Shown in pieces: positions 9,806-64,000 of a DNA stretch of 64,000 nt. The stretch comes from Candidatus Methylomirabilota bacterium. GTDB taxonomy: Bacteria > Methylomirabilota > Methylomirabilia > Rokubacteriales > CSP1-6. The notes beneath the pieces were generated by a model. That model had not been told where the DNA came from and did not search any database. It saw nothing but the letters and a program-made list of their open reading frames with translations. The stretch spans positions 70,714 to 134,713 of the forward strand of contig DATBIM010000102.1 in NCBI GenBank assembly GCA_036556905.1, in the 5' to 3' direction. Position 1 is the stretch's first letter, and the number at the start of each line of letters is the position of its first letter. The position numbers and the translations under genes were made by a program.

Positions 9806-9815
9806 AGGCTCCTCG

Positions 9816-11207: not shown

Positions 11208-11217
11208 CGCCTCCTCC

Positions 11218-12828: not shown

Positions 12829-12860
12829 GGGTAGGCTCCTCGATAGGGTTCAGAGATTCA

Positions 12861-14558: not shown

Positions 14559-14570
14559 GGTGTCCTCCGT

Positions 14571-17309: not shown

Positions 17310-17579
17310 GAGTTATTCTCCTGCTAGCAATCTGCCATCGGTCCGGATCCGGTCCCTGTCTCAGCGATTTCACGCGGCGGATGGTAGGCGAGTTTGCCAC
17401 TTTCGTCCATCCGACCAAGGTCTCATTTATGCCGGTATGGCGTTGTGGTGTGCTCGCCGGGTGACACGATTGCCGATCGGGGGATGGCGGGCCCGCTGGT
17501 CCGGCAGTACAATCGTGCCCCCTCGTCCGCTGGCTGAAGGCGCGCAGCCTCGCCGCGCGGGTTGGGGCTGGGAGGCTCA

Positions 17580-19004: not shown

Positions 19005-19008
19005 CGCC

Positions 19009-48452: not shown

Positions 48453-50354
48453 ATGGCCGACGCGACGCCGCAGGCCCGGCGCCTGACCGGCGCCTGGCAC
48501 ACCGCCGCCCAGCTCATGCTGGGCGGCGTGTCGCTCTACTTCCTGTGGGCGACGTCGTTCGGCGTGGTGCCGCTCCAGTATTTCCGCGGAATCGCCGTGC
48601 TCTACAGCCTGGTGCTGCCGCTGCTCCTGTACAGGGCGTGGCGGACGAGCCGGCCCGACCGCCCCACCGTCGTCGATCTCGCCCTCGTCGTGGCCACCGT
48701 TGTCAGCATCGGCTACTGGATCGTCGAGCACGAGCAGATCGCCTACCGCGCCGGCGCCTACACCGAGCTCGACTTCTGGATGGGCGTCGTGCTGATGCTG
48801 GTCTCCATCGAGGCGGCCCGGCGCGTGCTCGGCTGGGGCATCGCCATGTGCGCCGTGCTGCCCATGGCCTACGCCCTGTTCGGCGCCTACCTGCCCTTCG
48901 TCATCGGCCACCGCGGCTTCACGCTCCGGCGGATCGTGGAGTTCGTCTACCTGACCTCCGACGGCATCTTCGGGGTGATGGCCGACGTCGTGGCCGGCTT
49001 CATTCTGCCCTTCGTGGTCTTCGGCGCCTTCATGGAGGTGGCCGGCGTGGCCCGGTTCTTCGTGGACCTGTCCCTGGCCGCGCTGGGCCGGATCGCGGGG
49101 GGCCCGGCCCAGGCCGCGGTGATCTCCAGCCTCTTCATGGGCACCGTGAGCGGAAGCCCGATCGCCGAGACCGTCACGACGGGAACCGTGACGATTCCCC
49201 TCATGAAACGGACCGGCTTTCCCGCGCACATCGCCGCCGCCGTGGAGGGCGCGGCCTCGACGGGGGCGATGATCATGCCCCCGGTGATGGGCGCGGGAGC
49301 CTTCATCATGGCCGAGATGACCGGGATCTCATATCTGGAGATCATCAAGGTGGCGGCGATCCCGGGCATCCTCTTCTACCTGTCCGTGGCCCTCATGGTC
49401 TACTTCGAGTCGCGCAAGCTCGGCTTACGCGGCCTCCGCGCCGATGAGCTGCCCCGGTTCGGCGCCGTCCTCAAGCGCGGTTGGTATTTCTTCATCCCCA
49501 TCCTCGTCTTGATGACGGCGCTGATCTGGGGCTGGGCGCCGGGGACGTCCGCGGTCTTCGGCATCGTGACTGCCATCGTGTTGAGCTGGGTGGTGCCGGG
49601 GGGCCGGCTCGGGCCGGCGCGGATCTGGGAAGCGTTGGTCGACGGCGGTAAGGCCAGCCTGTTCGTGGCCGCCCTGACCGGCGCCGTCGGCATCCTCATC
49701 GGCGTCCTGGCCCTCACCGGCATCGGCATTCGCTTCTCGTACGTCCTGGTGGACCTGGCCGGCGGGAGCCTGCCCCTCACGCTCCTCCTGCTCGCCGTCT
49801 CCACGCTGGTGTTGGGCCTGGCCCTGCCCATCACGGCCACATACCTGATGGTTGCCGTGGTGGCGGTGCCCGTGCTCGCGGATCTGGGACTGCCCCTGCT
49901 GACCGGGCACCTGATCATCCTGTGGCTGGCGCTGGACGCCAACATCACGCCGCCGGTGGCCCTGGGGCCGTTCGCGGCCGCGGCCATCGCCGAGGCCGAT
50001 CCGATGCGGACGGGGTGGAGCTGCTTCCGCTTCGCCAAGAGCATCTATCTGATGCCGGTATTGATGGCCTACACTCACCTGCTGTTCACCGGGACGCCGG
50101 CCCAGAACATCATGGCCGTCCTCTCGGCGACGCTGGGGACGGTGCTCTTCTCCATCTTGAGCACCGCATTCTTCATCGTCAGGATGACCGTTGTGGAGTT
50201 CGGGCTCTTCGCGCTGGCCACGGTGCTGGCCTTCATCCCGTTCCCGCTGCCGATGGCGGCCGCCATCGCGCTCTTCGCCGGCCTCTTTGTTTGGCAGCGC
50301 CGGCGGGCCCGGGCGTTACCCAGCCCGCGCGCCGCCGCCCGGGCGCCGGGCTAG
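48453..50354 (+). CDS. TRAP transporter fused 4TM/12TM permease (TAXI-associated DctQM-like)
   Basis: 633 aa, ~18 TM, typical of the fused permease paired with TAXI receptors. Confidence 0.75.
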   Translation: MADATPQARRLTGAWHTAAQLMLGGVSLYFLWATSFGVVPLQYFRGIAVLYSLVLPLLLYRAWRTSRPDRPTVVDLALVVATVVSIGYWIVEHEQIAYRAGAYTELDFWMGVVLMLVSIEAARRVLGWGIAMCAVLPMAYALFGAYLPFVIGHRGFTLRRIVEFVYLTSDGIFGVMADVVAGFILPFVVFGAFMEVAGVARFFVDLSLAALGRIAGGPAQAAVISSLFMGTVSGSPIAETVTTGTVTIPLMKRTGFPAHIAAAVEGAASTGAMIMPPVMGAGAFIMAEMTGISYLEIIKVAAIPGILFYLSVALMVYFESRKLGLRGLRADELPRFGAVLKRGWYFFIPILVLMTALIWGWAPGTSAVFGIVTAIVLSWVVPGGRLGPARIWEALVDGGKASLFVAALTGAVGILIGVLALTGIGIRFSYVLVDLAGGSLPLTLLLLAVSTLVLGLALPITATYLMVAVVAVPVLADLGLPLLTGHLIILWLALDANITPPVALGPFAAAAIAEADPMRTGWSCFRFAKSIYLMPVLMAYTHLLFTGTPAQNIMAVLSATLGTVLFSILSTAFFIVRMTVVEFGLFALATVLAFIPFPLPMAAAIALFAGLFVWQRRRARALPSPRAAARAPG

Positions 50355-50379
50355 GCGGCTCGAGGGGGCTGGGCCCCTC

Positions 50380-51147
50380 TCAGCCGATGACGCGGCCTCC
50401 CATGACGCGGATCGTGTCACCGGTGACGTAGGCGGAGGCGTCGGAGGCGAGGAACAGGCAGGCGTCCGCGATATCTTCCGGGCGGCCCAAACGGCGGAGC
50501 GGGACCTTCTTGAGCTCCTCCGGTGAGCTTGGCGGGGCCTGACGGAACTCGGGGTACCACTCGGCGTAGCGCCGCTCGGTATCGATGAATCCCGGCACCA
50601 CCATGTTGGCACGGATGCCGAAGGGCCCCAGCTCGGCGGCCAGCGCCCGGACCAGGCCCAGGAGCCCGGTCTTGGCCGTGGTGACCGCCGTGGTGTTGGG
50701 GCGCCCGGTGAGGCTCGACATCCCGCCGAGCGCGATGATGCTGCCCCGCCCCCGCTCCTTCATCCCGGGCACGACCGCCCGGGCCAGGTAGAAGGCCGAG
50801 TGGAGATCGACGGCCAGGACGTGGTGCCACTCCGCGAGCGACGTCTCGGTGAGGGCCTTGTGCGGGCGGATGGCCGCGTTGCAGACGAGGACATCGATGG
50901 CGCCCAGCGCGGCCAGGCCCTGGGCGACCATCGTCTCCACGGCGGCGGCGTCGGCCACGTCGGCGAGCACAGTGGTCACGCGCCCCCCGCTCTTGCGGCA
51001 CTCGGCGGCGACGGCTTCCAGCTCCTCGCCGTTCGCCCGGGTGTTGAGCACCAGATCCGCGCCCTCGGCGGCGAACGCCAGCGCGATGGCCCGGCCGATG
51101 TTGCGGCTGGCCCCCGTGATGAGCGCGACCCGGCCCCGGAGCTGATC
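50380..51147 (-). CDS. SDR-family oxidoreductase
   Basis: GTG start giving 'MPDQLRGRVALITGASRNIGRA'; 'CNAA','TTAKTG'; the upstream portion of the track ORF is an overlap artefact. Confidence 0.65.
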   Translation of the reverse strand, partial: DQLRGRVALITGASRNIGRAIALAFAAEGADLVLNTRANGEELEAVAAECRKSGGRVTTVLADVADAAAVETMVAQGLAALGAIDVLVCNAAIRPHKALTETSLAEWHHVLAVDLHSAFYLARAVVPGMKERGRGSIIALGGMSSLTGRPNTTAVTTAKTGLLGLVRALAAELGPFGIRANMVVPGFIDTERRYAEWYPEFRQAPPSSPEELKKVPLRRLGRPEDIADACLFLASDASAYVTGDTIRVMGGRVIG

Positions 51148-51158
51148 CGGCACGGAGC

Positions 51159-52145
51159 TCAGGACTGCAGCGCGAACTTCTGGAACGTGTGGCAGCCCGC
51201 CGGCACGTAGCCGCGGCTGCCGGCGAACGTCCAGGTGACCTCGCTCACGTAGACGTCGTGCTGGCTGTCCACGGCGATGCCGTGAGGGGCCGCGAAGCTG
51301 CCGGCCGCCACCGGATCCGGACCTTCGCCCCAGCGCGCGAGCACACGACCGTCGCGGTCGTAGACGCTGACACGGCCCGAGCGATTCGTACCGGCCGGTC
51401 CATACCGCCGCGAGGTCTGGCCCGGCTGCCACCACAGCTCGGAGACATACGCCCGGCCCTGGCCATCGAACACGAGGTGGGTCGGTCGCCGGGTATCGGT
51501 CCATTCGCTGAGGTACTCGCCGTCGGGGTTGAAGATCTGGATGCGGTCGTTCTCCCGGTCGCAGACGAACACACGCCCGTCCGCAGCCACCGCGATGCCG
51601 TGGGGCAGGAAGAACTCGCCGGGCCCCTGACCGGCCACGCCCCACGAGCGCTTCAGCTCGCCGGTGGGGGAGAAGCGGTGCACGCGGCAGTTCCCGTAGC
51701 CGTCGGAGATGTAGAGATCGCCCTTGGGTCCGATCGCCACGTTGGTCGGGCGGTTGAAAGGACCGCCAGGCTTGGTGGCAGTGGCCGTGTTCTTGCCGTC
51801 GTAACCCGTGTCAGAGGGCGTGTTCATGGTCCCCAGCGTCATCAGGAGCTTGCCGCTGGGAGTGAACTGCCGCACCGTGTGGTTGCCGTCATCCGTGGCG
51901 TAGACCGTCCCGTCGGGGCCGATCGTGATGCCATGGGTCCGCAGGGTGAACTGGCCCTCCCCCCACGAGCGCAGGAAGTTCCCCTTCTGGTCGTAGACGA
52001 TGATCGGGTGATCGCCGCGGCAGATCAGGTAGACCCGGTTCTCGCCGTCGACGGCCACCCCGGCCACGTCACGGTGCTCCCAGCCGGCGGGAAGCTGCTC
52101 CCAACCTTCGACGACCCCGTAGCTCGTCGTGCTCACCTGCGCCAT
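51159..52145 (-). CDS. NHL-repeat six-bladed beta-propeller protein (PAL/SMP-30-like)
   Basis: Repeated 'P.G(I/V)A(V/I)..DG.(V/I)YV.D..N.R(I/V)' blades. Confidence 0.6.
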   Translation of the reverse strand: MAQVSTTSYGVVEGWEQLPAGWEHRDVAGVAVDGENRVYLICRGDHPIIVYDQKGNFLRSWGEGQFTLRTHGITIGPDGTVYATDDGNHTVRQFTPSGKLLMTLGTMNTPSDTGYDGKNTATATKPGGPFNRPTNVAIGPKGDLYISDGYGNCRVHRFSPTGELKRSWGVAGQGPGEFFLPHGIAVAADGRVFVCDRENDRIQIFNPDGEYLSEWTDTRRPTHLVFDGQGRAYVSELWWQPGQTSRRYGPAGTNRSGRVSVYDRDGRVLARWGEGPDPVAAGSFAAPHGIAVDSQHDVYVSEVTWTFAGSRGYVPAGCHTFQKFALQS

Positions 52146-52242
52146 CGTTGGCCTCCGTCGCCCGTCCCGCGGTTCGGACCGTTGGCGATCGAGATCAGAC
52201 TATGGGAGAGACGCGCGATCGAGTCAAGGGACGGTTCGCGAC

Positions 52243-55218
52243 TCAGCGTACCCGGTAGGACTGGACCAGCCGGTTGCCGGCGCGATCGATCTCGACGACG
52301 ACGGTGGCCCGGTCAGGATCGCGCTGCAGCGGGATCAGCACTGCCAGCAGGCCCGAGGGCGGATGGTCGTCGATCCTGACGATCATGTCGCCGGCCTGAA
52401 TGCCGAGCCGGCCGGCCAGGCGGGGATCCGTCACCGCGAAGCCCTCCGCGCTGAGGACGCCCTCGATCAGGTTCGACGTCACCTGCCAGCGCCGGGCGGC
52501 GCGTGGAGCCAGCGGATTGAGCAGCGTGACCGAAGGCCCGTCCCCGGCCAGCGCGGCAAGATCCCGGACCGCCGGCGGGGGATCGGCGGCCAGCGGGCCG
52601 GGCGCGGCGCCACGGGCGGCGCGCTGATCGATCTGCCGGGTAACACCCGGCCGGGTAACACCCGCGGCCACGTCCTGGGCGCCGCCGCGCCCGACGACTG
52701 GCTTCTCGGCTGACGATGACTCATGTCCCCGTGGTCGGTCTCCGCCGGTTCGTCCGAGGATGAGCGCACCGGCGATGAGCATGCCCCCGGCCAGTCCCAG
52801 GATGATCATGGTCGTCCTGATTCGCCGCGGCCTTCTTGCCGCGTTCGCTCCCAGCCCCACGATCGCGACGAGACCGGCGGCAGCCAGGGCCACGGCGACG
52901 AAGGGACGGTCCAGCGCGAAGCCGGCGCCATGGGCGACCGGGCGGAGCACGCCACGGACGGCGGCGGCCAGGACCGGCTCGTTCCTGACCGCGCGTGCGA
53001 AGGGCGGACTGAGCGTGTAGTAGGCGCGGACGAGCAGTCGACCCACGGGGGTGGTCCGGAGCGCCTGATCGCGGAACCGACGGAGCGTCCGGACCTCGAC
53101 GGTCAACCGCGAGCCGAAGGCCGCGGTGGCGATCACGCAGTCATCGTCGGCGTCGTCTTCTACCGGGACGGGGGCGATCAGATCGGCGAGCTTGACCACG
53201 AAGCCGTCTTCCCCGCCCTGGTTGGTCCTCTGAAAGGCGCCGGGCGTGGCGGGGAAGTCGGTGGCCAGGGTGAAGCCGGCCACCCACACGGCGCCGAGGG
53301 TCGCAGTGATGGCCTGACCGAAGTCCTGTCCGGCCGCCAGGTTGCCCGTTCCTCCGAATCTGATGATGTCCAGGCTGATGCCGTTCACGCCGCTGCGCTT
53401 GTTGACGACGACGTCCACATGGGACTGCGGGCATCCCGGAGGGAGGAGCGAGGGGTCGGTGCAGACCAGTTGATTGGCCACGAGCTGGACATCGCCGACG
53501 GCGTCGACCGCGACCGCCGTCGGGACGGCGCTGCTCGTGCTTCGCGACCAGGCGATGAGGCTGCCCGTCGCGTCGAGCCTGGTGACGAAACCCTCGGTGA
53601 GGCCGGTGAACACGTCACCACCGGTCGCGGGAAAGTTCGCCGACGTCGTGCTGCCCACGACGTGCGGACTTCCCGCCGTGTTGACGGCGATCCCGTTGCC
53701 GATGTCGGCGCCGGCCCCCCCGAGGAAGGTGGACCAGCCGAGGCTGGCGTCGGCGTTCACCCGAGCCACGAAGGCCTCGACCCCGAGCCCGGGCAGGGGC
53801 TGCAGGCTTCCGGCTGTCGTCGGGAAGTCCGCCGACAGGGTGAAGCCGGTCACGTAGGCCCGGCCGCTGCCGTCGAGCGCGATGGCGTTGGCGGTATCAT
53901 CGTTGTTGCCACCGAGAAAGGTCGAGTACTCGAGGACAGTGCCCAGGGCGCTCAGCCGGGTCACGAAGGCGTCGCGGCAATCGACGGGCGGATTCCCGCA
54001 CGTCCCGCCGCCCAGATCAGGCTGCAACGCACTGGCGATGGGGAAGTCGATGGACCTGGTGCCCCCGGCCACGTGAGCCCGGCCACTGCTATCGACGGCG
54101 ATCCCGAACGCGGTGTCGAGTCCGGAACCGCCCAGGAAGGTGGAGTACGCGATCACCCCGTTGGGATCGAGCTTGACGACGAAGGCGTCGAAGTCGCCCT
54201 GGGGCAGCGCCTGGAAGCCGGCCGGGGTGGTCGGGAAGTCCGCCGAGTCGGTGAACCCGGCCAGGTAGGCGTTGTTGTTGGCGTCCACGTCGATGGCCCG
54301 GCCGCCGTCGGTGCCCGATCCGCCGATGTACGCCGAGTAGAGCAGGACCTGCCCGTTGGCGTCGAGCTTGCTCACGAACGCATCGAACCCGCCGGCCAGC
54401 GCGGTGGTGCCAATCTCCGGAAAATTGAGCGACGCCGTGTCGCCGGTCACGTAGACATTGCCCCCGACGTCCACGGCCACGCCGAAGGCCTGGTCGTCGC
54501 CGCTGCCCCCGAGATGCGTCGCCCACGCGATGACGGGATCGATCACCAGCGGGTGCGAGCGATCATGTGGCCCCAGCGCGAAGCCGGCTTGCGCCGGTCC
54601 GCGCACGACCCACGCCACCGGGATCTCACGCCGTGCCCGGTCGATCACCTGGTAAGCAACTGGCCGGCTGAGTCGCAGCGGGGGCCCGCCCGTGGTCAGA
54701 ACCAGATCACCGGCGCCGTCCACGGCAGCGTCCCGGATGCCCTCGAATCCCAGCGCGATAGCCCCGGGGTCAGCACCAGGCCGGATGACGAACTCCTGCT
54801 CGATCCGCGATCCGGCGTGGGCCCTGTAGATGGCGTCGATTCCGGAATAGGCATTCCGATAGACGACGCCGTCGTAGGTCGGCACGTTCGTGTACCAATT
54901 CGCGGGGTTCCGCCCGAGGAAGTAATGCGTCCGGCCTGGCAGTGGCCGGAGGCCGATGATCTCGGAGTCCTGATGCGCTCCCAGGAGGCGAAGCTGAACC
55001 CTCTGGCCGGCGCGCCGGTCGGCCAGGATCACTCCGGACTGGGTGACGAAGAGCGCGTAGCCGGGACCGCGTGAGAGAAACTTTACGCGGGCGTCGGCCT
55101 GCCCGCGATTGGGCTCGAAGACGACTGGCAGGGGAGGGCCGGCGCTACCGGCGGCGGGAGCCGCGAGCACCGCAACCGCCAGTCCCACAGCGAGGCAGGT
55201 CCCTCGCATCGGCGCCAT
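52243..55218 (-). CDS. large secreted SBBP (beta-propeller repeat) protein with C-terminal hydrophobic anchor and PDZ-like domain (paralogue 1)
   Basis: Signal peptide; N-terminal 'VVFEPNRGQADARVKFLSRGPGYALFVTQ'; 'GGSGxDxAxGIAVDxxGNxYVxGxTxSxDFP' repeated >8 times; 'CVIATAAFGSRLTVEVRTLRRFRD' plus 2 TM; C-terminal 'GIQAGDMIVRIDD' PDZ-like. Confidence 0.65.
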   Translation of the reverse strand: MAPMRGTCLAVGLAVAVLAAPAAGSAGPPLPVVFEPNRGQADARVKFLSRGPGYALFVTQSGVILADRRAGQRVQLRLLGAHQDSEIIGLRPLPGRTHYFLGRNPANWYTNVPTYDGVVYRNAYSGIDAIYRAHAGSRIEQEFVIRPGADPGAIALGFEGIRDAAVDGAGDLVLTTGGPPLRLSRPVAYQVIDRARREIPVAWVVRGPAQAGFALGPHDRSHPLVIDPVIAWATHLGGSGDDQAFGVAVDVGGNVYVTGDTASLNFPEIGTTALAGGFDAFVSKLDANGQVLLYSAYIGGSGTDGGRAIDVDANNNAYLAGFTDSADFPTTPAGFQALPQGDFDAFVVKLDPNGVIAYSTFLGGSGLDTAFGIAVDSSGRAHVAGGTRSIDFPIASALQPDLGGGTCGNPPVDCRDAFVTRLSALGTVLEYSTFLGGNNDDTANAIALDGSGRAYVTGFTLSADFPTTAGSLQPLPGLGVEAFVARVNADASLGWSTFLGGAGADIGNGIAVNTAGSPHVVGSTTSANFPATGGDVFTGLTEGFVTRLDATGSLIAWSRSTSSAVPTAVAVDAVGDVQLVANQLVCTDPSLLPPGCPQSHVDVVVNKRSGVNGISLDIIRFGGTGNLAAGQDFGQAITATLGAVWVAGFTLATDFPATPGAFQRTNQGGEDGFVVKLADLIAPVPVEDDADDDCVIATAAFGSRLTVEVRTLRRFRDQALRTTPVGRLLVRAYYTLSPPFARAVRNEPVLAAAVRGVLRPVAHGAGFALDRPFVAVALAAAGLVAIVGLGANAARRPRRIRTTMIILGLAGGMLIAGALILGRTGGDRPRGHESSSAEKPVVGRGGAQDVAAGVTRPGVTRQIDQRAARGAAPGPLAADPPPAVRDLAALAGDGPSVTLLNPLAPRAARRWQVTSNLIEGVLSAEGFAVTDPRLAGRLGIQAGDMIVRIDDHPPSGLLAVLIPLQRDPDRATVVVEIDRAGNRLVQSYRVR

Positions 55219-55273
55219 CCTACGGGCAGGAATCTCCGACGTCCAGAGCAGATTGAGAGCGCCGGCCCTGTGC

Positions 55274-55519
55274 TCAGGATCGGGCTCGCTCCTCGGGGTT
55301 CCGATCCACGATGCACAGACGACAGATCCGGTCGTCGAGGTCGGCGCTCAGCCGGTGCAACAGCGACCGGGGGACCTTGAGGAGCGCCTCCACCTCGTAG
55401 GCCAGCAGGTCGAGCCCCGCGATCACGCTGGCCCGCCAGGGATCGAGGAAAAAGTCGGTTCTGAACGCCTCGTCCGTGACCATCTTGCCGAGCGCCCGCT
55501 CCACCGATCTCTGGCTCAT
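55274..55519 (-). CDS. small conserved-looking helical protein (81 aa), possible sigma54-dependent target; weak likeness to NHLP/Nif11-type leader regions
   Basis: GAGGAGG-5nt-ATG; 'ALGKMVTDEAFRTDFFLDPWRASVIAGLDL'; C-terminal 'ICRLCIV'; track ORF is extended upstream to 55579 by an in-frame ATG. Confidence 0.5.
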   Translation of the reverse strand: MSQRSVERALGKMVTDEAFRTDFFLDPWRASVIAGLDLLAYEVEALLKVPRSLLHRLSADLDDRICRLCIVDRNPEERARS

Positions 55520-55544
55520 CCTGTCCTCCTCGCTCCCAGGAGAG

Positions 55545-55560
55545 AGCAAGAGGCACGCCG
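55545..55560 (-). promoter_or_regulatory. candidate sigma54 (-24/-12) promoter CGGCGTG-N4-TTGCT
   Basis: GG-N10-GC spacing; 9 of 12 consensus positions (TGGCACG-N4-TTGCW); -12 GC ~20 nt upstream of the SD and ~30 nt upstream of the ATG; inverted and direct repeats 85-130 nt further upstream. Confidence 0.4.
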
Positions 55561-55696
55561 AATGAGTGGTGTCGTGCAAGTGGCTGAGACGGTGACGATG
55601 GTGACATGGCGAACCGCCGCGTCGATCGGAGGCTGTCGGGGTTGCCGCAGTGGCGCTGCGGATCCTGCTACAGACTGTCGAGAAATCTACAGCCGC

Positions 55697-57817
55697 TCAG
55701 GCGCCGTCCAGGCCGAAGCGTTTGAGGCGCGTGTAGAGCTGAGAGCGGGTCAGCCCCAACAGCCTGGCCGCGCGGGACTTGTTGCCCCGCGCCTTCTGCA
55801 TCGCGTCGGCGACGATCTGCCGCTCCGCCTCGGCCAGGGGAGTCACCGGCGCGTCCGCGGCCGGCGGGGCGGTCTCATCGCTTCGGACCTCCCGGCGCGG
55901 CGTGATGCCCAGCTGGGCCGCGGTGATGAGACTGCCATCGGACAGGATCAGCGCCCTCTCCACGGCGTTCTGCAGCTCCCGGATGTTGCCCGGCCAGCTG
56001 TGGGCGATCAGCGCCTCGCGGGCGTCACGGCTCAGCCCGGGCTCCCCCTTGCCCATCCGCGCGCCGAGCGTGTGCACGAAGTGGTCGGCCAGGAGCAGCA
56101 CGTCGTCGCCGCGCTCGCGCAGCGGGGGCAGGTGAACGGCGAAGACGTTGAGCCGATAGAAGAGATCCTCGCGGAAGCGGCCGTCCGCCACCGCCTGCTC
56201 CAGATCCCGGTTGGTGGCCGCCACGATGCGGACATCGGCCTTCAGCGTCGCGGTGCCGCCCACGCGCTGGAACTCGCGCTCCTGCAGCACGCGGAGCAGC
56301 TTGGCCTGCACGGGCGGGGTGAGCTCGGCGACCTCGTCGAGGAAGAGCGTGCCTCCCGCGGCCAGCTCGAAGCGCCCCGGCTTCTGGCGGTCGGCTCCCG
56401 TGAAGGCCCCGCGCTCGTGGCCAAACAGCTCCGACTCCAGCAGGGCCTCGGGCAGCGCCGCGCAGTTGACGGCGACGAACGGCCCGTCGGCGCGGACGCT
56501 GGCGTAGTGGATGGCGCGCGCCACGATCTCCTTGCCCGTGCCGCTCTCGCCGGTGAGCAACACCGTGGTCTCGGCGGGCGCCACCTTGGCCGCGCGCGAG
56601 AGGGCCTCGCGGACGGCCGGGGAGCGGCCGATGATCTGATCGAAGCCGTACTGCTGGCCCAGGGATTCCCGTAGCGAGGCCAATCGCTCCTCCAGCTGGC
56701 GGGCCCGACCCTCGGCGGCGGCCAGGCGCCGCTGCTCGTCGCCCAGGCGCTGGTGCTGCAGGGCCAGAACCACGGACTCCGCGACGTGCTCGGCGATCTC
56801 TACGTCGGCCCCGTCGAACCAGTATGGACGTCGCTTGCCGAAGTACAGCGCGCCGCCGACCACCCCACCACGGTGAAGGGCCACGCCGAGGGCCGAGCGC
56901 CCGCCGTCGTCCAGCATGAGGCGGTCCCCCGGGCTCTTGGGATCGAGCTCGACGAGCGCATCGCGAACCAGGATGGGCTGGCCCGCGCGCATTTTCTCGG
57001 CGAAGGAGAAGCTCTCGAGATCCATCCTCCAGGGCGCCGGCTCGGCCGGCGGCGCGCTGTCCACCTCGACGAGCTTCTCCAGCTCGCGCCCGCTGGAGGA
57101 GAGCAGGCAGATCCCCATCACGTCGAAGTCGAGGACCGGCTTCACCACCTCGGCGAGCCGGTCGAAGACGTCCTTGACGTCCAGGCTCGTGGCCAGCGCC
57201 GGGCCCAGCGCGGCCAGGCCGTGCAGGCGGCGCAGCCGACGTCGCTCCCGTTGCAGCAGCACGGTGCTCTGAATGAAGGGCGCGATGAGATCGGCGACCT
57301 GCCGGCCCGTGGCCAGGTGCTGGTCGGTGTAGGCGCCGGCGGTCAGGCTGCTGGCGGCCAGGCAGCCCACCACCCGGCCCCCGCTGTACAGGGGGAGGAG
57401 CAGGGCCGCGCGAAATCCCGCCTGGCGGACCCGATGCTCGATCGCGCCTTCGCGGGCGACGCGATCGTCGGCGCGAAGATCATCGACGCGGAGCGCCTCG
57501 CCGTCGAACACGGACCGAAGCCCCCAGTCGCCGACCCGATAGCGGCCCTCCGGCGAGAAGCCGGTGGTGTAGTGCCGGGCGTGCAGCACCGGCCCGTTCT
57601 TGGCGTGCTCGGCGAAGATGCTGAAGGTCCGGCGGTCGTCGTCGAGGTAGGCGATCACCAGCCGGTCGTGGGGGATGAGCCGCTCGAGCTTGGCCGAGAA
57701 ATCGGCGAGAAAGCGTTGGGGATCGAACTCGTCCTGCATGGAACGGCCGATGGCCGCCAGGCATTCGACCAGGTCGGCCAGCGCCGTATCGTCGGCCACG
57801 GTCGTCATGGCCCCCAA
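55697..57817 (-). CDS. sigma54-dependent Fis-family transcriptional activator (GAF-GAF-AAA+-HTH enhancer-binding protein)
   Basis: Two GAF domains; '[11 protein letters not shown]' Walker A; 'GAFTGA' sigma54-contact motif; 'RELQN'; C-terminal Fis HTH '[25 protein letters not shown]'. Confidence 0.85.
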
Positions 57818-57856
57818 TCATACCGCGGGGACCCGAGCCCTCGGGGGCCGACGTCG

Positions 57857-60800
57857 TCAGCGTACGCGATACGAGTGCACGAGCCGCGTCCCACCGCGGT
57901 CGATCTCCACGAGCACCGTCGCGCGGTCGGGATCGCGCTGGACCGCGCTCAGCACGGCGAGCAGGCCGCGCGGTGGACGCCCGCCGACGCTGACGATGGT
58001 GTCGCCGGCCTCGATGCCGAGCCCGCGGGTCAGGCGGGGATCGGTCACCACGAAGCCGTCCGCGCCGAGGACACCCTCGATCAGATCTGACCTCACCGCC
58101 CAGCGGCGGGCGTCGCGTGAAGCCAGTGGATTGATCAACCGCACCGATCCCTCCCGGCTTGTGAGGTCGCGCAGGAGGTCCCGCGTTGCTGGCGCTGGGG
58201 GTGTGGTGAGCGGCCTGGGGCCAGGCCCGCTCTCCGCACGCCGGGCCGTCGGCGTGGGCCGGGTGGATGGAGCCGGGGCGGCGAGTATCTCACTCACGCC
58301 AGGCTCCGGCCGGGCTTCCCGCGCCGCGGCTGGTGAGGGCGCTGGCAATTGCCCGGGCCCCGCCGGCATCCGCTCCGGCCGGGCCAGAGCCAGCACAATG
58401 ACGAGCAGCACTGCTCCGACGATGAGGCAGGCGAGCGTCACACCCAGGACCGGCCTCGTTTTCCTTCGCGTCACCATCCCCAGCGCCAGCATCATTGCCA
58501 GCCCAATTGCCGTGAGCGCGATGGTCACGAAGGGCCTCTCGACAACAACGCCGACACCGAGGGCGACCGGGCGAAGCAGGCCGCGGACAACGGCGGCCAG
58601 CCGTGGGTTCCTCGCGACCGTGCGCGCCAGTGGCGGGCTCAGCCGGTAATAGGCGCGGACGAGCGCACGGCCGGCCGGGTGGGTCATCAGCACACGATCA
58701 CGGAACTGCCGGAGGGTCTGGACCTCGGGAGCCAGCGGTGAGCCGAAGGCAGCGGTGGCGATTAGGCAGCCGCCAACGCCTCCTTCCGGAAAAAATCCTC
58801 CCTCCGGAGGGCCACTGGGAGGGTTCGTGGCGATCGGATCGATCGGGTCCATCAGCTTGACCACGAAAGCGTCGGCTCCACCCTGGTGGGCCGGCTGCAC
58901 GGCGCCGGGTGTCGTGGGGAAGTCAGCCGCGCGGGTGAAACCCGCCACCCAGAAAGAAACGACCCCGCGGGTGACGATGGCCTGGCCGAAGTCCTGGCCG
59001 GCCGCCAGGTTGCTTCGTCCCCCGAACGTGATGATGTCGAGCCGGTGGCCGTCGCCGCCGCTGCGCTTGTCGACGACGACGTCGACGTGGGATTCTGCGC
59101 ATCCCGGAGGGATGGTGGGCATCGTGCAGACGAGGGTGTTGGCGACGAGACGAACATCGGCGAAGTTGTTGAGGGCGACCGCCGTCGGCACGGCGCTGCC
59201 GGTGCTCCGGGACCAGAGGACAGCGCTGCCTGCCGCGTCGAGCTTCGTCACGAAACCATCGGTAGCGCCGATGAACGAATCTCCCCCGGTGGCCGGGAAG
59301 TTCGCCGAGGCCGTGCTCCCGACCACATGAGAATGTCCCGCCGTGTCGACCGCGATGCCGTTGGCAGTATCCGAGCCGCTGCCGCCCAGGTACGTCGACC
59401 AGCCGAGACTGCCGTCGGCGTCCACCCTCGCGACGAAGGCGTCGAGCCCACCGCGTGGAGTGGGCAGCAGGCTCTCGAGGGTCGTCGGGAAGTTCCCCGA
59501 CAGGGTGAAGCCGGTGAGGTACGCATTGACGTTACGGTCCAGGGCGATGCCGTTGGCAGCGTCGTCGTCGCTGCCACCGAGGAAGGTCGAATACTCGAGG
59601 TCGGTCCCAAGGGGATTCAGCCGAGCCACGAAGGCGTCGCGGCAGGGGAAGGTGTCCGGCGCGATCCCGCAGGTGCCGCCGCCCGGTGTCGGCTGGAGCG
59701 CATTGCTGATGGGAAACTCGCTGGACCGGGTGCCACCGGCCACGTGGGCGCGGCCGTTGACATCCACGGCGATCCCGAGCGCTGTGTCGCTTTCAGCCCC
59801 ACCCAGGTAGGTGGAGTAGAGGATGGCGCCGGTGGGGTCGAGCTTGACGACGAAGCCGTCGAGGCCTCCCCCGTGGACCGGCTGGACGGTGCCGGCCGTG
59901 GTGGGGAAGTCAGGAGAGTCGGTGAATCCCGCTAGATAGACATTTGCCGCTGAATCCGCGGCGATGGCCCGGGCTCCGTCGGTGCCGCTGCCGCCGATAT
60001 AGGCGGAGTAGATGAGGCTCTGGCCGTTAGCATCGATCTTGGTCACGAAGGCGTCGGTCCCTACCGGGAGGCCAGAAGCATCTGGGAAGTCAGGCGACGT
60101 CGTGTCGCCGGTCACAACGACGTTGCCGACGGCGTCCAGGGCGACGCCGAAGGCCTGGTCGTCACCGGTGCCACCCAGGAGCGTCGCCCAGGTGATGACA
60201 GGATCGATCACCAGCGGAAGCGAGCGGTCGTAGCGGCCGAGCCAGAACCCTACCTCCCTCGGCCCACGAACTATCCACGCGGCCTGAATCCCACGGTGGT
60301 GCCCGTCGATCACCTGGTGGGCCACTGGCCGGCTGAGCCGCACCTCGCTCTTCGTTGTGGCCAGCACGAGGTCGCCGGCGCCGTCCACGCTCGCCGCCTG
60401 GACCCCATCGAGCTCCAGCCTGATCGCGTCGGGATCAGCGCCAGGCTGGACCAGGAAGTCCTGCTCGATGCGCAGCGCGGCGTCAGCCCTGTAGACCGCG
60501 TCGATCCCCGGGTAGACCTCCCGGTACGCGACCCGCGCATACGTGGGCACATTCGTCCGCCAGTGCAGGGGATTCTGCCCGATGAAGTAGTGAATCCGCC
60601 CCGGCAGGGGCTCGAGACCGACCACCTCGGGTTCCTCTCGCGCCCCGACGAGACGCAGCCGCACCCGTTCGCCGGTGCGACGATCGGCGAGCATCGTCTC
60701 GGCGGCCGTGATGAAGAGCGTGAAGCCCGGCCCGCGCGACAGGAACTTCACCTGGGCATCCACCTGTCCACGGTTGGCTTCGAAGACGACCGGCCCGCGC

Positions 60801-60877
60801 GCCCCGGCGGCGCCGGGCACGAAAACCATGAAAAGCGCCGCAGCCACACCCGTGCCGATCCATGTCGCTCGTGGCAT
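57857..60877 (-). CDS. large secreted SBBP beta-propeller protein with C-terminal anchor and PDZ-like domain (paralogue 2)
   Basis: Start at MPRATW after AGGAGG-6nt; same architecture as paralogue 1 ('VVFEANRGQVDAQVKFLSRGPGFTLFIT', SBBP repeats, 'CLIATAAFGSPLAPEVQTLRQFRD', TM, C-terminal 'GIEAGDTIVSVGG'). Confidence 0.65.
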   Translation of the reverse strand: MPRATWIGTGVAAALFMVFVPGAAGARGPVVFEANRGQVDAQVKFLSRGPGFTLFITAAETMLADRRTGERVRLRLVGAREEPEVVGLEPLPGRIHYFIGQNPLHWRTNVPTYARVAYREVYPGIDAVYRADAALRIEQDFLVQPGADPDAIRLELDGVQAASVDGAGDLVLATTKSEVRLSRPVAHQVIDGHHRGIQAAWIVRGPREVGFWLGRYDRSLPLVIDPVITWATLLGGTGDDQAFGVALDAVGNVVVTGDTTSPDFPDASGLPVGTDAFVTKIDANGQSLIYSAYIGGSGTDGARAIAADSAANVYLAGFTDSPDFPTTAGTVQPVHGGGLDGFVVKLDPTGAILYSTYLGGAESDTALGIAVDVNGRAHVAGGTRSSEFPISNALQPTPGGGTCGIAPDTFPCRDAFVARLNPLGTDLEYSTFLGGSDDDAANGIALDRNVNAYLTGFTLSGNFPTTLESLLPTPRGGLDAFVARVDADGSLGWSTYLGGSGSDTANGIAVDTAGHSHVVGSTASANFPATGGDSFIGATDGFVTKLDAAGSAVLWSRSTGSAVPTAVALNNFADVRLVANTLVCTMPTIPPGCAESHVDVVVDKRSGGDGHRLDIITFGGRSNLAAGQDFGQAIVTRGVVSFWVAGFTRAADFPTTPGAVQPAHQGGADAFVVKLMDPIDPIATNPPSGPPEGGFFPEGGVGGCLIATAAFGSPLAPEVQTLRQFRDRVLMTHPAGRALVRAYYRLSPPLARTVARNPRLAAVVRGLLRPVALGVGVVVERPFVTIALTAIGLAMMLALGMVTRRKTRPVLGVTLACLIVGAVLLVIVLALARPERMPAGPGQLPAPSPAAAREARPEPGVSEILAAPAPSTRPTPTARRAESGPGPRPLTTPPAPATRDLLRDLTSREGSVRLINPLASRDARRWAVRSDLIEGVLGADGFVVTDPRLTRGLGIEAGDTIVSVGGRPPRGLLAVLSAVQRDPDRATVLVEIDRGGTRLVHSYRVR

Positions 60878-61296
60878 CGTCGACCTCCTGGGGAGGCGTT
60901 CGCGATGCCGGCGCATGGAGCAACTCCCGCGCCACCCAGGAACGACGAGGCCATCCGGCCAGATGCTGAAGGCTACTTATCGGTGATTGTTGCAAAGTCG
61001 CCACGTGTGGACCGTCCAGCCGCCGCTGATGTGGTTCTCTGCGCGGCCAGTGGCCGGCGAATCTCCGACAGCGAATCTGTCGAACCACGGTGCTGCGGGC
61101 ACCTTGGCGTGTCCCGGGCCCGGGGCTATGGCGATACCTGCTGGGGGTTGCCGAGCGCAAGGCCGTTCCCAATGGCACTCGCCTGGCTGTGGGTGCAGTG
61201 CTGGCGCAGGCATTCACGAGATTTTGAGGGTTCCGGACGCCGGCTTTACGCGCCGTTGACGTCGCGCGCGCTACAACAAGTCTGGAGGAGGGCCAG

Positions 61297-61464
61297 ATGG
61301 GCAAGAAGCCGGCCGAGCGAACAGTGACGACAGCAGCGAGGAACACCCTCGGGTTCGAGGCGACCGTTCCCTGCGGCTGCTGCGGCGCCCCGTCGCGGCG
61401 TTCCCAGAAGCAGTTCCGGGTGTGCGTGAACGGGCATACCTTCACCAAGAAGAGCGACCAGTGA
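61297..61464 (+). CDS. small Cys-rich (zinc-ribbon-like) protein, 55 aa, not in the ORF track
   Basis: GGAGGAGGG-5nt-ATG; MGKKPAERTVTTAARNTLGFEATVPCGCCGAPSRRSQKQFRVCVNGHTFTKKSDQ; 64 nt upstream of map. Confidence 0.4.
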   Translation: MGKKPAERTVTTAARNTLGFEATVPCGCCGAPSRRSQKQFRVCVNGHTFTKKSDQ

Positions 61465-61528
61465 CGATGGTCCGTCCGCGCGGCGCCTGCCGGAAGCCAG
61501 GCGCCGCGCGGACGGGCTCGAGTCAGCG

Positions 61529-62299
61529 ATGATCGTGCTGAAGTCGCCCTCCGAGATCGCGGTGATGCGGCGCGCGGGCCACATCCTGGCGGACGTCATG
61601 GACTGGCTGCCGACCTTCGTCAAGCCCGGCGTGTCCACGCTGGCGATCAACATGGAAGTGGAGGCCCTCATCCGGCGGCGCGGGGCCACGCCGGCGTTCA
61701 AGGGCTATCAGGGCTACCCGGCCACGGCCTGTGTCTCGATCAATGCCGAGGTCGTGCACGGCATCCCCTCCGCCGGCCGGCGGCTGGCGGCGGGCGACAT
61801 CGTGAGCGTCGACGTCGGCTGTGTCCTCGACGGCTACTACGCGGACTGCGCCGCGACGCTCGCGATCGGCGAGATTCCCGCATCCGTGCGCGCGCTCCTC
61901 GCCGTCACCCGGGAGAGCCTGGAGCTCGCCATCGACGCGTGCCGCGTCGGCCGGCGGCTCTCCGACGTCTCCTATGCTGTGCAGACGCACGTGGAGGGCC
62001 ACGGGCTCGCCGTGGTCCGCGCCTTCGTGGGGCACGGCATCGGCCGCGCGCTGCACGAGGAGCCCGAGGTGCCGAACTTCGGCGCCGCCGGGCGGGGTCT
62101 CCGACTGCGACCCGGCATGGTGCTGGCCATCGAGCCCATGGTGACGCTGGGCGCGCCGGAGGTCGAGGTGCAAGAGGATGGATGGACGGCGATCACGCGG
62201 GACGGCAGTCTGTCTGCCCACTTCGAGCACACGGTGGCGATCACGGAGCAGGGACCGGCCGTGCTGACCCGCCGGGACGGGCGGCCGTCCGCGCCCTGA
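61529..62299 (+). CDS. map: type I methionine aminopeptidase
   Basis: 'IVLKSPSEIAVMRRAGHI', metal ligands D..D..H..E..E pattern ('VDVGCVLDGYYAD','HGIGRALHEEP','EPMV'). Confidence 0.85.
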   Translation: MIVLKSPSEIAVMRRAGHILADVMDWLPTFVKPGVSTLAINMEVEALIRRRGATPAFKGYQGYPATACVSINAEVVHGIPSAGRRLAAGDIVSVDVGCVLDGYYADCAATLAIGEIPASVRALLAVTRESLELAIDACRVGRRLSDVSYAVQTHVEGHGLAVVRAFVGHGIGRALHEEPEVPNFGAAGRGLRLRPGMVLAIEPMVTLGAPEVEVQEDGWTAITRDGSLSAHFEHTVAITEQGPAVLTRRDGRPSAP

Positions 62300-62515
62300 G
62301 AGCATCAGCCGGGGCTGCCTCCAGGGCTCCGGCCAGCCCAACGTCCCCCGTCCTCCCTGGTAGCGCCTGTGTGCTATTTTCCACGCTCGACGAGGCGTCA
62401 CGCCGCGACGACTCTGCATCACGGTCGGCGTCATGGCCATGGGGCTCGCGCTGGCCATGAAGCCGCGGGTGCGGCTCCACTTCTCCGCGGTCTCAGCGAA
62501 GGGATAGAGAGTCGC

Positions 62516-63331
62516 TTGACGAGGGCCACCCTCCTCTGCACCGTACGTGGTTGCCGGTTGCCGCTCACGCGCGAGGCGCGTCGCCTGATCTGCCCGGACG
62601 GGCATTCGTTCGACTTCGCGCGGAGCGGCTACGTCAACCTCCTGCAGCCCCACGATCGGAGATCGCGACGACCGGGCGACTCCCCGGAGGCGGTCGCGGC
62701 GCGCCGACGCATCCTCGCCGGCGTCGAGGGACCGCTCGTCGACAAGGTGGTCGACCTGCTGACGATCAGCATGGCCGACGCCGTGCTGGACGTCGGCTGC
62801 GGGGAGGGACACTACCTCGCGACCATCGCGGCGCGGTTCCGCTGCGCGGCGTACGGTATCGACATCTCCGTCGCGGCCATCGCCGCCGCCGCCCGGCTCC
62901 ATCGGGGGCTCGAGTGGATCGTGGCGAACGCCGACCGCTTCATCCCGTTTGCCGAGGCCTCGTTCCGGGTCGTCGCCTCGATCACCGGGCGCATGAACCC
63001 GGGCGAGTTCCGGCGCGTCGTTCGGGGAAATGGGGCTCTGCTCGTCGCTGTCCCCGCCCCCGACGACCTCATCGAGCTCCGGCAGGCAGTGCTCGGCGAG
63101 GGGGTGCTGCGCGACCGCGTCGAGCGAACGATCGCCACATTCGCGCCATTCTTCACGCTCGTGCGGCGGGAGCGCATCAGTCACGCCGCGCGGCTCGACG
63201 CCGCCGCCGTCGCCGACGTCATGACCGGCTCGTACCGAGCGCTCCGCCGGAGCGAGCGTGCCCGGCTCGACGCGATCGGCGATCTCGACGTCACGCTGAG
63301 CCGTGACGTGCTGCTGTTCCGACCATCGTGA
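62516..63331 (+). CDS. 23S rRNA (guanine-N1)-methyltransferase RlmA-like (zinc-ribbon plus class I SAM MTase)
   Basis: TTG start giving 'MTRATLLCTVRGCRLPL...LICPDGHSFDFARSGYVNLL' (RlmA N-terminus pattern); 'VLDVGCGEGHY' SAM motif I. Confidence 0.65.
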   Translation: MTRATLLCTVRGCRLPLTREARRLICPDGHSFDFARSGYVNLLQPHDRRSRRPGDSPEAVAARRRILAGVEGPLVDKVVDLLTISMADAVLDVGCGEGHYLATIAARFRCAAYGIDISVAAIAAAARLHRGLEWIVANADRFIPFAEASFRVVASITGRMNPGEFRRVVRGNGALLVAVPAPDDLIELRQAVLGEGVLRDRVERTIATFAPFFTLVRRERISHAARLDAAAVADVMTGSYRALRRSERARLDAIGDLDVTLSRDVLLFRPS

Positions 63332-63406
63332 CCCTCCCTGTCATGGTGCGGACGGGCGCCCAGCTCCGGGCCAGCGTGTCGCCATTCGGCCGAGGATCGG
63401 CGCTAT

Positions 63407-63782
63407 CATGGGTCCCGTGCTCGAGCGGCTCGCCGAGCTGGTCAACAGCGACGAGGCCCTGGTCCGTCGGGGTCGCTATCTGAGCACGACATTTCTCGTC
63501 GAGACGGGCGACACGGCCTGGCTGGTCACGGTGATCGAGGGCCGGGTCGCCCGGCTCGAGCGCGGGCCCTTTCTCATGCGCCAGTGGAGCTTCGCCGTGC
63601 GGGCTCCGGCCGACGCGTGGCGGCGCTTCTGGGCCCCGCTGCCGGCGCCCGGCTACCATGATCTCTTCGCCATGGCCAAGGCCGGTCACGCGCGGATCGA
63701 AGGCGACCTCCTGCCCCTCATGGCCAATCTGCGCTACGTCAAAGGGGTGTTGGAAGCGCCCCGGGGGCGCGACCGTGGCTGA
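63407..63782 (+). CDS. SCP2-like / hypothetical small protein
   Basis: Clean 125-aa ORF; C-terminal 'ARIEGDLLPLMANLRYVKGVL' resembles an SCP2 sterol-carrier fold terminus. Confidence 0.4.
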
Positions 63783-64000
63783 GCCCCACCTCGAGCCGAT
63801 CATCGGTCGGTATCTGCGGCTCGTTCTGCAATCCCGCGTGCACCGGCTGTACTTCGAGGAAGCCGGGCAGGGGATCCCGCTGGTGTGCCTGCACACGGCG
63901 GGCTCCGATGGCCGCCAGTTCCGCCATCTGCTGACCGATGAGGCGGTCACGCGGCGCTTTCGCGTGCTGGCCTTCGACATGCCCCGGCACGGCAAGTCGC
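63776..64000 (+). CDS. alpha/beta hydrolase, 3'-partial (continues past window end)
   Basis: GTG start overlapping the upstream stop; 'RLYFEEAGQGIPLVCLHTAGSDGRQF...FDMPRHGKS' typical N-terminus of an alpha/beta-hydrolase. Confidence 0.5.

Follow-up and report, generated by a model that had tools for sequence, protein, structure and literature searches.

Gene Organization of the Locus

The stretch of DNA analysed here (the window) comprises 64,000 nucleotides (nt) of a Candidatus Methylomirabilota (Rokubacteria) bacterium (GenBank assembly GCA_036556905.1, contig DATBIM010000102.1, positions 70,714 to 134,713 of the forward strand) and has a G+C content of ~69%. All credible genes across its positions 50380-60916 lie on the minus strand. 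In this run, two paralogous proteins of ~1000 amino acids (aa), here called W1 and W2, flank a GAF-GAF sigma-54 activator and an 81-aa open reading frame (ORF), as a preliminary description of the locus had stated. All parts of W1 and W2 are catalogued; their novelty is an internal CFI box fused to a tethered PDZ domain. The genes of the run, from the 5' side, are as follows (TM, transmembrane segment):

57857..60877 (ORF open to 60916), minus strand: paralogue 2 (W2), 1006 aa from the ATG at 60877, with the domain order signal peptide, DUF7948, 7-blade SBBP propeller, internal CFI box, TM1, basic loop, TM2, Pro/Ala-rich linker, PDZ
55697..57817, minus strand: sigma-54 enhancer-binding protein (the activator), GAF-GAF-AAA+(GAFTGA)-HTH_8
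55274..55519, minus strand: small ORF of 81 aa, Os1348 family, NHLP clan (NF038399)
52243..55218, minus strand: paralogue 1 (W1), 991 aa, W2-like architecture
51159..52145, minus strand: NHL-repeat beta-propeller protein, 328 aa, without signal peptide, a conserved neighbour 3' of W1-type genes
50380..51153, minus strand: short-chain dehydrogenase (SDR), 257 aa, which closes the minus-strand run

The intergenic gaps between W2, the activator, the small ORF and W1 are 39, 177 and 55 bp long. The range of 39-117 bp given previously was correct in its lower value, while 117 bp holds only if an upstream TTG is taken as the start, against the family alignment. The translation of W2 almost certainly begins at the ATG at 60877, because a Shine-Dalgarno sequence, AGGAGG, is located 7 nt upstream of it, and because the resulting protein of 1006 aa is exactly as long as the database protein P0001, which is 95% identical to W2. 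An exact database look-up of a 1019-aa version of W2 gave no match, as this version started from a wrong codon. W1 is 100% identical to the database protein P0008 over the aligned region.

The Predicted Extracytoplasmic Heads of W1 and W2

W1 and W2 align over their full length with 60% identity. The values for the individual regions are 63% in DUF7948, 67% in the propeller, 69% in the CFI box, 69% in the PDZ domain, and ~33% in the TM pair and linker. A hydrophobic signal-like segment is present at the N-terminus of both proteins. Anchoring as lipoproteins is ruled out, as neither signal peptide has a lipobox. The segment is followed by a head, which in W1 is delimited as follows:

53185..55119, minus strand: W1 head, consisting of the all-beta DUF7948 domain (aa 34-229) and a seven-bladed SBBP propeller (aa 230-678)

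DUF7948 (PF25778) is matched over its full-length model with 170.7 bits in W1 and 178 bits in W2 (gathering threshold 27), and SBBP (PF06739) with 89.7 and 107.2 bits, respectively. The SBBP propeller had been recognized in the preliminary description, which counted more than eight repeats; this number did not hold. The AlphaFold model of W1 (mean pLDDT of the whole model 79, head mostly >90) has seven four-stranded blades at pLDDT >90, and Pfam counts four to five repeats as significant. More than 7900 database proteins match the head, with 30-45% identity in the DUF7948-SBBP region. Among orthologues, the CFI box and PDZ domain are 91-95% identical, the head 81-89%, and the linker 49-60%, whereas the activator, the small ORF, the NHL and SDR genes and the TRAP transporter genes next to the run are 92-95% identical. 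The CFI box and PDZ domain thus evolve more slowly than the head and linker, as would be expected if an exposed head changed faster than the conserved anchor and PDZ machinery that carry it. A literature search returned nothing on CFI-box-CTERM, the IATAAYG motif, DUF7948 or Franean1_4349, and only unrelated mentions of SBBP.

The only solved relative of the head is CylK (PDB 7ron), and the alignments cover the propeller blades alone (CylK residues 248-632). In CylK, a Ca-binding beta-roll is joined to a propeller of seven blades, and the active site lies where the two domains meet (PMC8916777). At the N-terminus of W1 and W2 there is DUF7948, a domain unrelated to the beta-roll that supplies the catalytic Arg105, and hence membership of the head in the CylK family of alkylating enzymes is not supported; this was judged on the domain composition, the family being defined also by the propeller residues Tyr473 and Asp440. 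An enzymatic role of the head is nevertheless possible. It could, for instance, be a periplasmic enzyme like CylK or BrtB, acting on an inducing compound that is handled also by the NHL protein, the SDR and the efflux pump found at related loci (see below), with the PDZ domain serving oligomerization or localization. We regard this as improbable. The operon neighbours are indeed enzymes and transporters, and the W1-NHL-SDR trio is retained at 67% identity in the absence of the activator. On the other hand, the homology to CylK ends with the blades, no catalytic residues could be mapped, the beta-roll with Arg105 is missing, and thousands of DUF7948-SBBP proteins bear adhesin-like extra domains.

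An Internal CFI Box Followed by a Tethered PDZ Domain

Downstream of the head, W1 contains two further modules:

52750..53139, minus strand: W1 membrane module, with the CFI box (aa 694-761, three amphipathic helices after an invariant Cys), TM1 (~772-793) and TM2 (~798-823)
52246..52749, minus strand: W1 tail, with a disordered linker (aa ~824-892) and a PDZ fold (aa ~893-991) containing an invariant QRDPDR

The preliminary description had assigned to both proteins a signal-like segment, a conserved N-terminal domain, a Cys-containing amphipathic motif and two hydrophobic helices, and all of them were found, DUF7948 and the CFI box with scores above the cutoffs. The amphipathic motif is not new: the C(V/L)IATAAFGS...FRD...YY..SPP block of W1 and W2 is the catalogued CFI_box_CTERM (NF041770), matched over all 69 model positions with 78.2 bits in W1 (aa 694-761) and 94.7 bits in W2 (aa 717-784; cutoff 40). 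Its position in the two proteins is uncommon. Usually the CFI box is C-terminal and is followed by one TM helix and a short basic tail: in 78 out of 84 CFI proteins from other genomes, 73-126 aa separate the Cys from the stop codon. The Cys of W1 and W2 is ~290-300 aa away from the C-terminus (in W1, at aa 699 of 991). It is thus unusual that the CFI box of W1 and W2 is internal, with TM1, an Arg-rich loop, TM2, a disordered linker, and a PDZ domain after it.

To resolve this region, the C-terminal 303 residues of W1 were modelled separately with the family alignment. The model contains six helices, which correspond to the CFI motif, three amphipathic Arg-rich helices and two hydrophobic ones, then a disordered segment (model residues 131-204), and a beta-rich C-terminal domain with a pLDDT of 80-90 (aa 205-303 of the model). 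In a Foldseek search of this model against the PDB, the best 50 of 697 matches were all PDZ-containing chains, the top one being the EpsC PDZ domain 2i4s (E=3.5e-3, probability 1.0); EpsC/GspC, MamP, DegQ/DegS/DegP and RseP were among the matches listed. The C-terminal PDZ-like domain postulated previously is therefore predicted to be folded as a PDZ domain and not to be disordered. With a profile built on the PDZ tail, 498 relatives were retrieved from 1.84 billion representatives. Several score above the threshold of Pfam PDZ_6 (P0177, 37.6 bits; P0204, 30.4 bits), and stand-alone TM-PDZ proteins (150-390 aa) were commonly retrieved.

Hydropathy indicates, besides the N-terminal signal-like segment, two TM segments in each protein, and the loop between them is NAARRPRRIR in W1 and RRKTRP in W2. 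As the head is expected outside, the positive-inside rule would place the Arg-rich loop in the cytoplasm and return the linker and PDZ domain to the periplasm; this predicted topology is also based on analogous proteins. CFI-box proteins of three other phyla (L053 ~1265-2420, L070 ~10001-11140, and L073 ~10010-11065) carry an alternative tail, in which the box, TM1 and the basic loop are followed by a signal-peptide-like TM2 and a ~250-aa domain ending in an aromatic residue. These ~250-aa tails resemble an outer-membrane beta-barrel, and the proteins could be trans-envelope tethers. The presence of a signal-like TM2 after a basic loop in them supports the topology proposed for W1 and W2.

When one genome per species was scanned with the C-terminal module of W1 and W2, at least 548 stretches coding for a CFI box were detected across many phyla. 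The complete tail was matched at four loci only, all of them from Methylomirabilota/Rokuibacteriota. The origin of this architecture is suggested by locus L172 (263-3279). It encodes an 808-aa DUF7948-SBBP-CFI-CTERM protein, which aligns with W1 residues 30-772, and a 197-aa protein with a TM anchor, linker and PDZ domain, which aligns with W1 residues 802-990. The TGA of the first gene overlaps the ATG of the second (ATGA), and the break point is exactly in the TM1-TM2 loop of the fused proteins. Since both parts are encoded here by overlapping genes, and since stand-alone TM-PDZ proteins are frequent, W1 and W2 look as if a canonical CFI-box-CTERM protein had been fused to a signal-anchored PDZ protein. 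If this is true, the fusions would provide the first functional handle on the DUF7948/SBBP, CFI-box and stand-alone TM-PDZ families, and would predict that the three cooperate in the periplasm. Clustering of every ORF with 100 aa or more at 77 CFI loci revealed no dedicated sorting or processing partner of the CFI box; NtrC-type regulators alone recurred, in 11 of the 77 loci, which is about the chance level.

The structural matches of the PDZ domain to DegS, DegQ and RseP invite the question of whether W1 and W2 belong to an envelope-stress pathway. In such a case, they would be PDZ-bearing sensors feeding regulated proteolysis or alternative sigma factors, with the PDZ domain supplied in trans, in a DegS/RseP-like manner, to PDZ-less trypsin-like proteases, and the linkage to sigma-54 would be one of several couplings. 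Other SBBP-CFI-PDZ paralogues do occur near genes for an extracytoplasmic function (ECF) sigma factor, a ~240-aa protein of unknown function, a PDZ-less trypsin-like protease and a large CHAT-TPR protein (L002 984-9762, L003 949-3108, L004 3305-8759), and this gene set is found in two different arrangements. Nevertheless, the association is limited to these three loci, no protease or ECF sigma factor gene is present near W1 or W2 in the window, and matches to protease PDZ domains are generic for bacterial PDZ domains. We therefore consider this role of W1 and W2 very unlikely.

The Activator and Candidate Sigma-54 Promoters

The regulator between the two paralogues is the GAF-GAF-AAA+-HTH sigma-54 activator that was described previously: it has two GAF domains, a Sigma54_activat domain (244.8 bits), AAA_lid_14 and HTH_8 (52.6 bits), and its GAFTGA loop and Walker A motif (GESGTGKE) can be read in the sequence. 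It scores below the equivalog cutoffs of NifA (TIGR01817; 412.8 vs. 528.9), FhlA (NF011958; 333 vs. 830) and NorR (NF003451; 364.8 vs. 476), and thus was assigned to none of them. Two candidate promoters for sigma-54 polymerase were found in the run:

60920-60934, minus strand: candidate sigma-54 -24/-12 element of W2, TGGCGCGGGAGTTGC (promoter listed as TGGCGCGGGAGTTGCT, 60920..60935), 43 nt upstream of the W2 start
55546..55560, minus strand: candidate sigma-54 -24/-12 element CGGCGTGCCTCTTGC, 41 nt upstream of the ATG of the small ORF

The W2 element differs at one position from TGGCAC-N5-TTGC and is one of 3 such sites in the 64 kb. At the equivalent position of L005, a contig of a related metagenome-assembled genome (MAG), the element is retained (TGGCGTGGGACTTGCT; TGGCGTGGGACTTGC) amid diverged flanks, in both cases about 60-70 nt ahead of the start codon. 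The element of the small ORF is identical in L005 and in another related locus, L001. In most distant loci with an Os1348-type gene, a YGGC-N8-TTGC element is located 40-65 nt before the ATG. Moreover, of 72 unique metagenomic sequences upstream of Os1348-type genes (L085-L168), 56 have GG-N9-TGC on the coding strand, as compared with 9 on the opposite strand and 10.7 +/- 3.1 in shuffled sequences.

No intergenic terminators were found within the run, and the sole sigma-70-like match in the scanned region is weak and located between W1 and the NHL gene. The two -24/-12 elements, together with the lack of intergenic terminators, are good grounds for proposing that W2, and likewise the genes from the small ORF to W1, NHL and SDR, are under sigma-54 control, which is, as judged from the sequence, likely. 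The occurrence of such elements upstream of both W2 and the small ORF supports co-regulation. CGACAG/CTGTCG hexamers, the only sequences that the two promoter regions have in common, occur ~95-165 nt upstream of both candidate promoters (window 55630-55690 and 61060-61090, minus strand), as well as in L001 and L005.

Conservation of the Gene Order

Two close relatives allowed us to compare the order of genes. In L001 (GCA_975203205.1), the activator and small ORF are followed by genes of an RND adaptor (membrane fusion protein, MFP), an RND pump, a W1 orthologue (81%), NHL, SDR, and then DctM and NMT1; W2 is missing. L005 and L169 are two contigs of MAG GCA_035457825.1, which abut inside the MFP (adaptor) gene. 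Together they have the order W2 (72%), activator (95%), small ORF (94%), adaptor, pump, W1 (87%), NHL, SDR. The arrangement with W2, the activator and the small ORF ahead of W1, for which a synteny search had been suggested, thus recurs in one other MAG, and is probably present on the contig of P0001 as well.

In the two closest relatives, the small ORF and W1 are separated by the RND adaptor and pump genes, which occupy ~4.4 kb (L001 5590-10000) and are absent from the window. W1 starts 55-56 bp after the small ORF or, in the relatives, after the pump gene. The 3' half of the 55-bp spacer of the window (55219-55273) is homologous to the post-pump spacer of L001, suggesting a clean deletion of the RND pair. 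Elsewhere in the window (17538-22179, plus strand), there is a second RND pair, which encodes an HlyD-type adaptor and an AcrB-type pump, 27-28% identical to the missing pump of the operon.

The position of W1 and W2 next to the activator could be incidental, if they were independently expressed surface proteins brought here by a rearrangement, such as the event that removed the RND pump. The gene content around the activator does vary among the three close relatives, the SBBP proteins evolve faster than their neighbours, and the weak sigma-70-like site lies between W1 and NHL. We still find this explanation unlikely. A near-consensus -24/-12 element just upstream of W2 is conserved in L005, the start of W1 keeps its 55-56 bp distance from the small ORF or pump gene with part of the spacer homologous between loci, and no terminators separate the genes.

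A wider view was obtained from a metagenomic survey of 80 loci with an Os1348-type gene in JGI metagenomes. An activator homologue ends at most 400 bp upstream of the Os1348-type gene in 20 of 58 loci and within 2.5 kb in 30 of 58, and a related RND adaptor (MFP) gene is directly downstream in 26 of 67. At loci lacking the RND pump, the next genes include those of ABC-2 and MFS transporters, an ECF sigma factor and oxidoreductases. Not one of the 80 loci contains an SBBP gene. As these counts indicate, the widely conserved unit, defined at the level of sequence, is the activator, a sigma-54 promoter, the Os1348-type gene, and the RND adaptor/pump or another exporter, while the SBBP-CFI-PDZ proteins are lineage-specific additions to it. 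No description of this module was found in the literature that was searched. The module ties an 'antibiotic-related' family of small proteins to sigma-54 control and RND export at dozens of metagenomic loci.

W1-type genes have conserved neighbours of their own. The NHL protein, which is of a signal-less six-bladed-propeller type, and SDR are always encoded 3' of them (in the window, L001, L169, and the P0016 contig), even where the activator and small ORF are lacking; a W1-like gene at 67% identity retains NHL and SDR with no activator nearby. Solitary members of the SBBP-CFI-PDZ family were found as well (L006, L171).

These data bear on the proposal of the preliminary description that the paralogues and activator form a dedicated, self-contained envelope system, namely, a heteromeric adhesin or sensor read by the GAF activator. 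The paralogues flank the activator both here and in GCA_035457825.1, both are apparently behind sigma-54 promoters, and their CFI and PDZ modules are strongly conserved. Clearly, though, the activator is conserved together with the Os1348-type gene and the RND pump and not with SBBP genes, L001 carries the activator and W1 without W2, and members of the SBBP-CFI-PDZ family also occur alone or with ECF sigma factors. Additionally, nothing evident connects the GAF activator, a cytoplasmic protein, with a periplasmic PDZ domain. Accordingly, we do not retain a conserved pair-plus-regulator system, and give a self-contained adhesin or sensor little credence. What stands of the proposed sigma-54-gated surface or periplasmic assembly is the predicted extracytoplasmic membrane anchoring and the promoter elements, and what falls is the dedicated assembly. 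The statement that no system of this composition is characterized is right only in that nothing in these families is characterized; the domains themselves are catalogued.

The 81-aa Protein of the Os1348 Family

The small ORF matches NF038399 with 62.3 bits (cutoff 40), and the profile of its family aligns almost over its full length (profile positions 7-78) with PDB 6lk7, the structure of Os1348 (E=2.4e-5). The protein is Frankia_peptide-like and has neither a signal peptide nor a TM segment. Its relatives share a conserved body of ~68 residues with one conserved Cys (DDRICRL) and a short, variable, charged tail. We down-weighted the possibility that it is a precursor of a ribosomally made, post-translationally modified peptide of the NHLP type: there is no GG site, the homology to a folded dimeric crystal protein is full-length, and no maturases are encoded nearby. 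The neighbours of Os1348-type genes, here and in the relatives, are MFP/RND, ABC-2, MFS and similar genes.

Two readings of its function can be put forward. The small protein, or a derivative of it, may be exported by the transporter encoded downstream, or it may be a feedback modulator of the adjacent activator, by analogy with PspA and PspF.

Proposed Function of the Operon

Taken together, these results lead us to favour a reading in which lineage-specific envelope proteins were recruited into an inducible sigma-54 efflux-type operon, whose pump was lost in this genome. We give this reading as a whole an even chance of being correct. The ancestral and widespread unit would have consisted of the activator, a sigma-54 promoter, the Os1348-type gene, the RND adaptor and the RND pump, and W1 and W2 would have joined it as lineage-specific passengers. 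The GAF-GAF activator, presumably ligand-sensing, would activate both sigma-54 promoters, the elements of which were observed: one promoter would drive W2, and the other the Os1348-type gene, W1, the cytoplasmic NHL protein and SDR.

On the basis of prediction and homology, a Sec-type signal peptide would export DUF7948 and the seven-bladed CylK-type SBBP propeller. The CFI-box helices and TM1 would anchor this head in the inner membrane with the Arg-rich loop in the cytoplasm, and TM2 would act as an internal signal-anchor that re-exports a ~70-residue disordered tether with the PDZ domain at its end. The PDZ domain might dock on a peptide of a partner, either a C-terminal one or a beta-strand, and this partner could be an envelope protein or the sister paralogue. 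As for the role of the proteins, we suggest with low certainty an inducible periplasmic binding or catalytic module, deployed with efflux/detoxification genes upon a small-molecule signal.

Several points weigh against this recruitment into an efflux-type operon. The SBBP-activator linkage was seen only in very close relatives, whose activators are 92-95% identical, and may therefore be recent and functionally incidental. Both promoter elements are sequence matches only, that of the small ORF carries 3 mismatches to the E. coli consensus, and the CGACAG hexamers may be activator-binding sites, on weak evidence. The topology and the location of the PDZ domain are predictions; the PDZ region is of lower confidence in the full-length model than in the C-terminal model, and Pfam PDZ_6 scores of 18.7 and 16.6 bits for the window proteins are below the threshold of 27. 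The split of the two genes in L172, which comes from a single-read assembly and one contig, could be a frameshift artefact. Finally, neither DUF7948 nor SBBP nor the CFI box is known to have a ligand, partner or activity.

The importance of the finding as stated is modest, as it concerns lineage-specific envelope proteins of an uncultured phylum. A bolder interpretation is that the fusions expose an undescribed partnership between an inner-membrane, CFI-anchored DUF7948/CylK-type propeller head and a long-tethered periplasmic PDZ domain, which was recruited together with an RND pump into a widespread undescribed sigma-54 regulon, whose first gene encodes an Os1348-type protein that either serves as an exported signal or modulates the GAF-GAF activator by feedback. 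In this full form we think it is probably wrong, and put it forward as speculation.

Flanking Regions

On the 3' side, the minus-strand run converges with the genes of the TRAP transporter:

48453-50354, plus strand: DctM
47463-48437, plus strand: NMT1

The genes 5' of W2 are on the plus strand and of a housekeeping type, encoding an M24 peptidase and an RlmA-like methyltransferase. Minus-strand ORFs at 61246-63995, upstream of W2, were rejected, as they have no Pfam match and the real genes there are on the plus strand. An Rfam search of 50000-62000 revealed no non-coding RNA. Farther away, a four-gene run on the minus strand (window 8597-17312) encodes a Na/glutamate symporter, an aminotransferase, an Asp-Al_Ex/TrkA-C permease and a large Orn/Lys/Arg decarboxylase, and resembles a cluster for amino-acid decarboxylation and antiport.

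Comparison with Known Systems

W1 and W2 resemble CFI-box-CTERM proteins in the invariant C-x-IATAAFGS...EV..LR.FRD...YY..SPP, in the signal peptide and large extracytoplasmic head that precede it, and in the TM helix and Arg-rich stretch that follow. They differ from them in that the box is succeeded by a second TM helix, the disordered linker and the PDZ domain. With DUF7948+SBBP proteins, such as the Acidobacteria 'TIGR03437 family' and the LipL53-type SBBP lipoproteins of Leptospira, they share the head, whereas those proteins end in TIGR03437-type tails, Ig-like/adhesin-like domains, or a plain CFI-CTERM. The scores against the LipL53 equivalog, 64-75 bits, are far from its cutoff of 400. 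CylK, in contrast to W1 and W2, is a soluble biosynthetic enzyme without a CFI box, TM helices or PDZ domain.

The PDZ fold, predicted to be periplasmic on a membrane tether, is common to W1 and W2 and to GspC/EpsC, DegS/DegQ, RseP and MamP. However, W1 and W2 lack the HR, protease or cytochrome domains of these proteins, and their invariant RRW and QRDPDR are not the motifs of these families. As regards GspC of type II secretion, the PDZ fold alone is shared; there is no T2SS_C match and no gsp genes are nearby.

In several sigma-54 operons, including those controlled by PspF and HrpS, the first gene encodes a small modulator of the adjacent activator (PspA and HrpV, respectively). The locus described here would be like them in having an activator gene beside a putative sigma-54 promoter, the first product of which is a small cytoplasmic protein, predicted to be helical. 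The small ORF and activator have, however, no sequence relationship to these pairs.

A further parallel is the Os1348/OS3 cluster of Pseudomonas (PMC7726476; PDB 6lk7). The 85-aa protein Os1348 of Pseudomonas sp. Os17 is a dimer and has been linked to antibiotic activity; an RND-pump mutant accumulates it, and the neighbours of its gene encode putative maturation enzymes (PMC7726476). The small ORF shares its NCBIfam family with Os1348, and both are found with an RND efflux pump nearby. The settings of the two genes are nonetheless different. The Pseudomonas gene precedes genes of the GNAT, HEXXH-peptidase and SagB types and is under Gac/Rsm control, whereas the small ORF is located behind a candidate sigma-54 promoter beside a GAF-GAF activator, and its relatives, the one in the window excepted, directly precede the MFP/RND genes.

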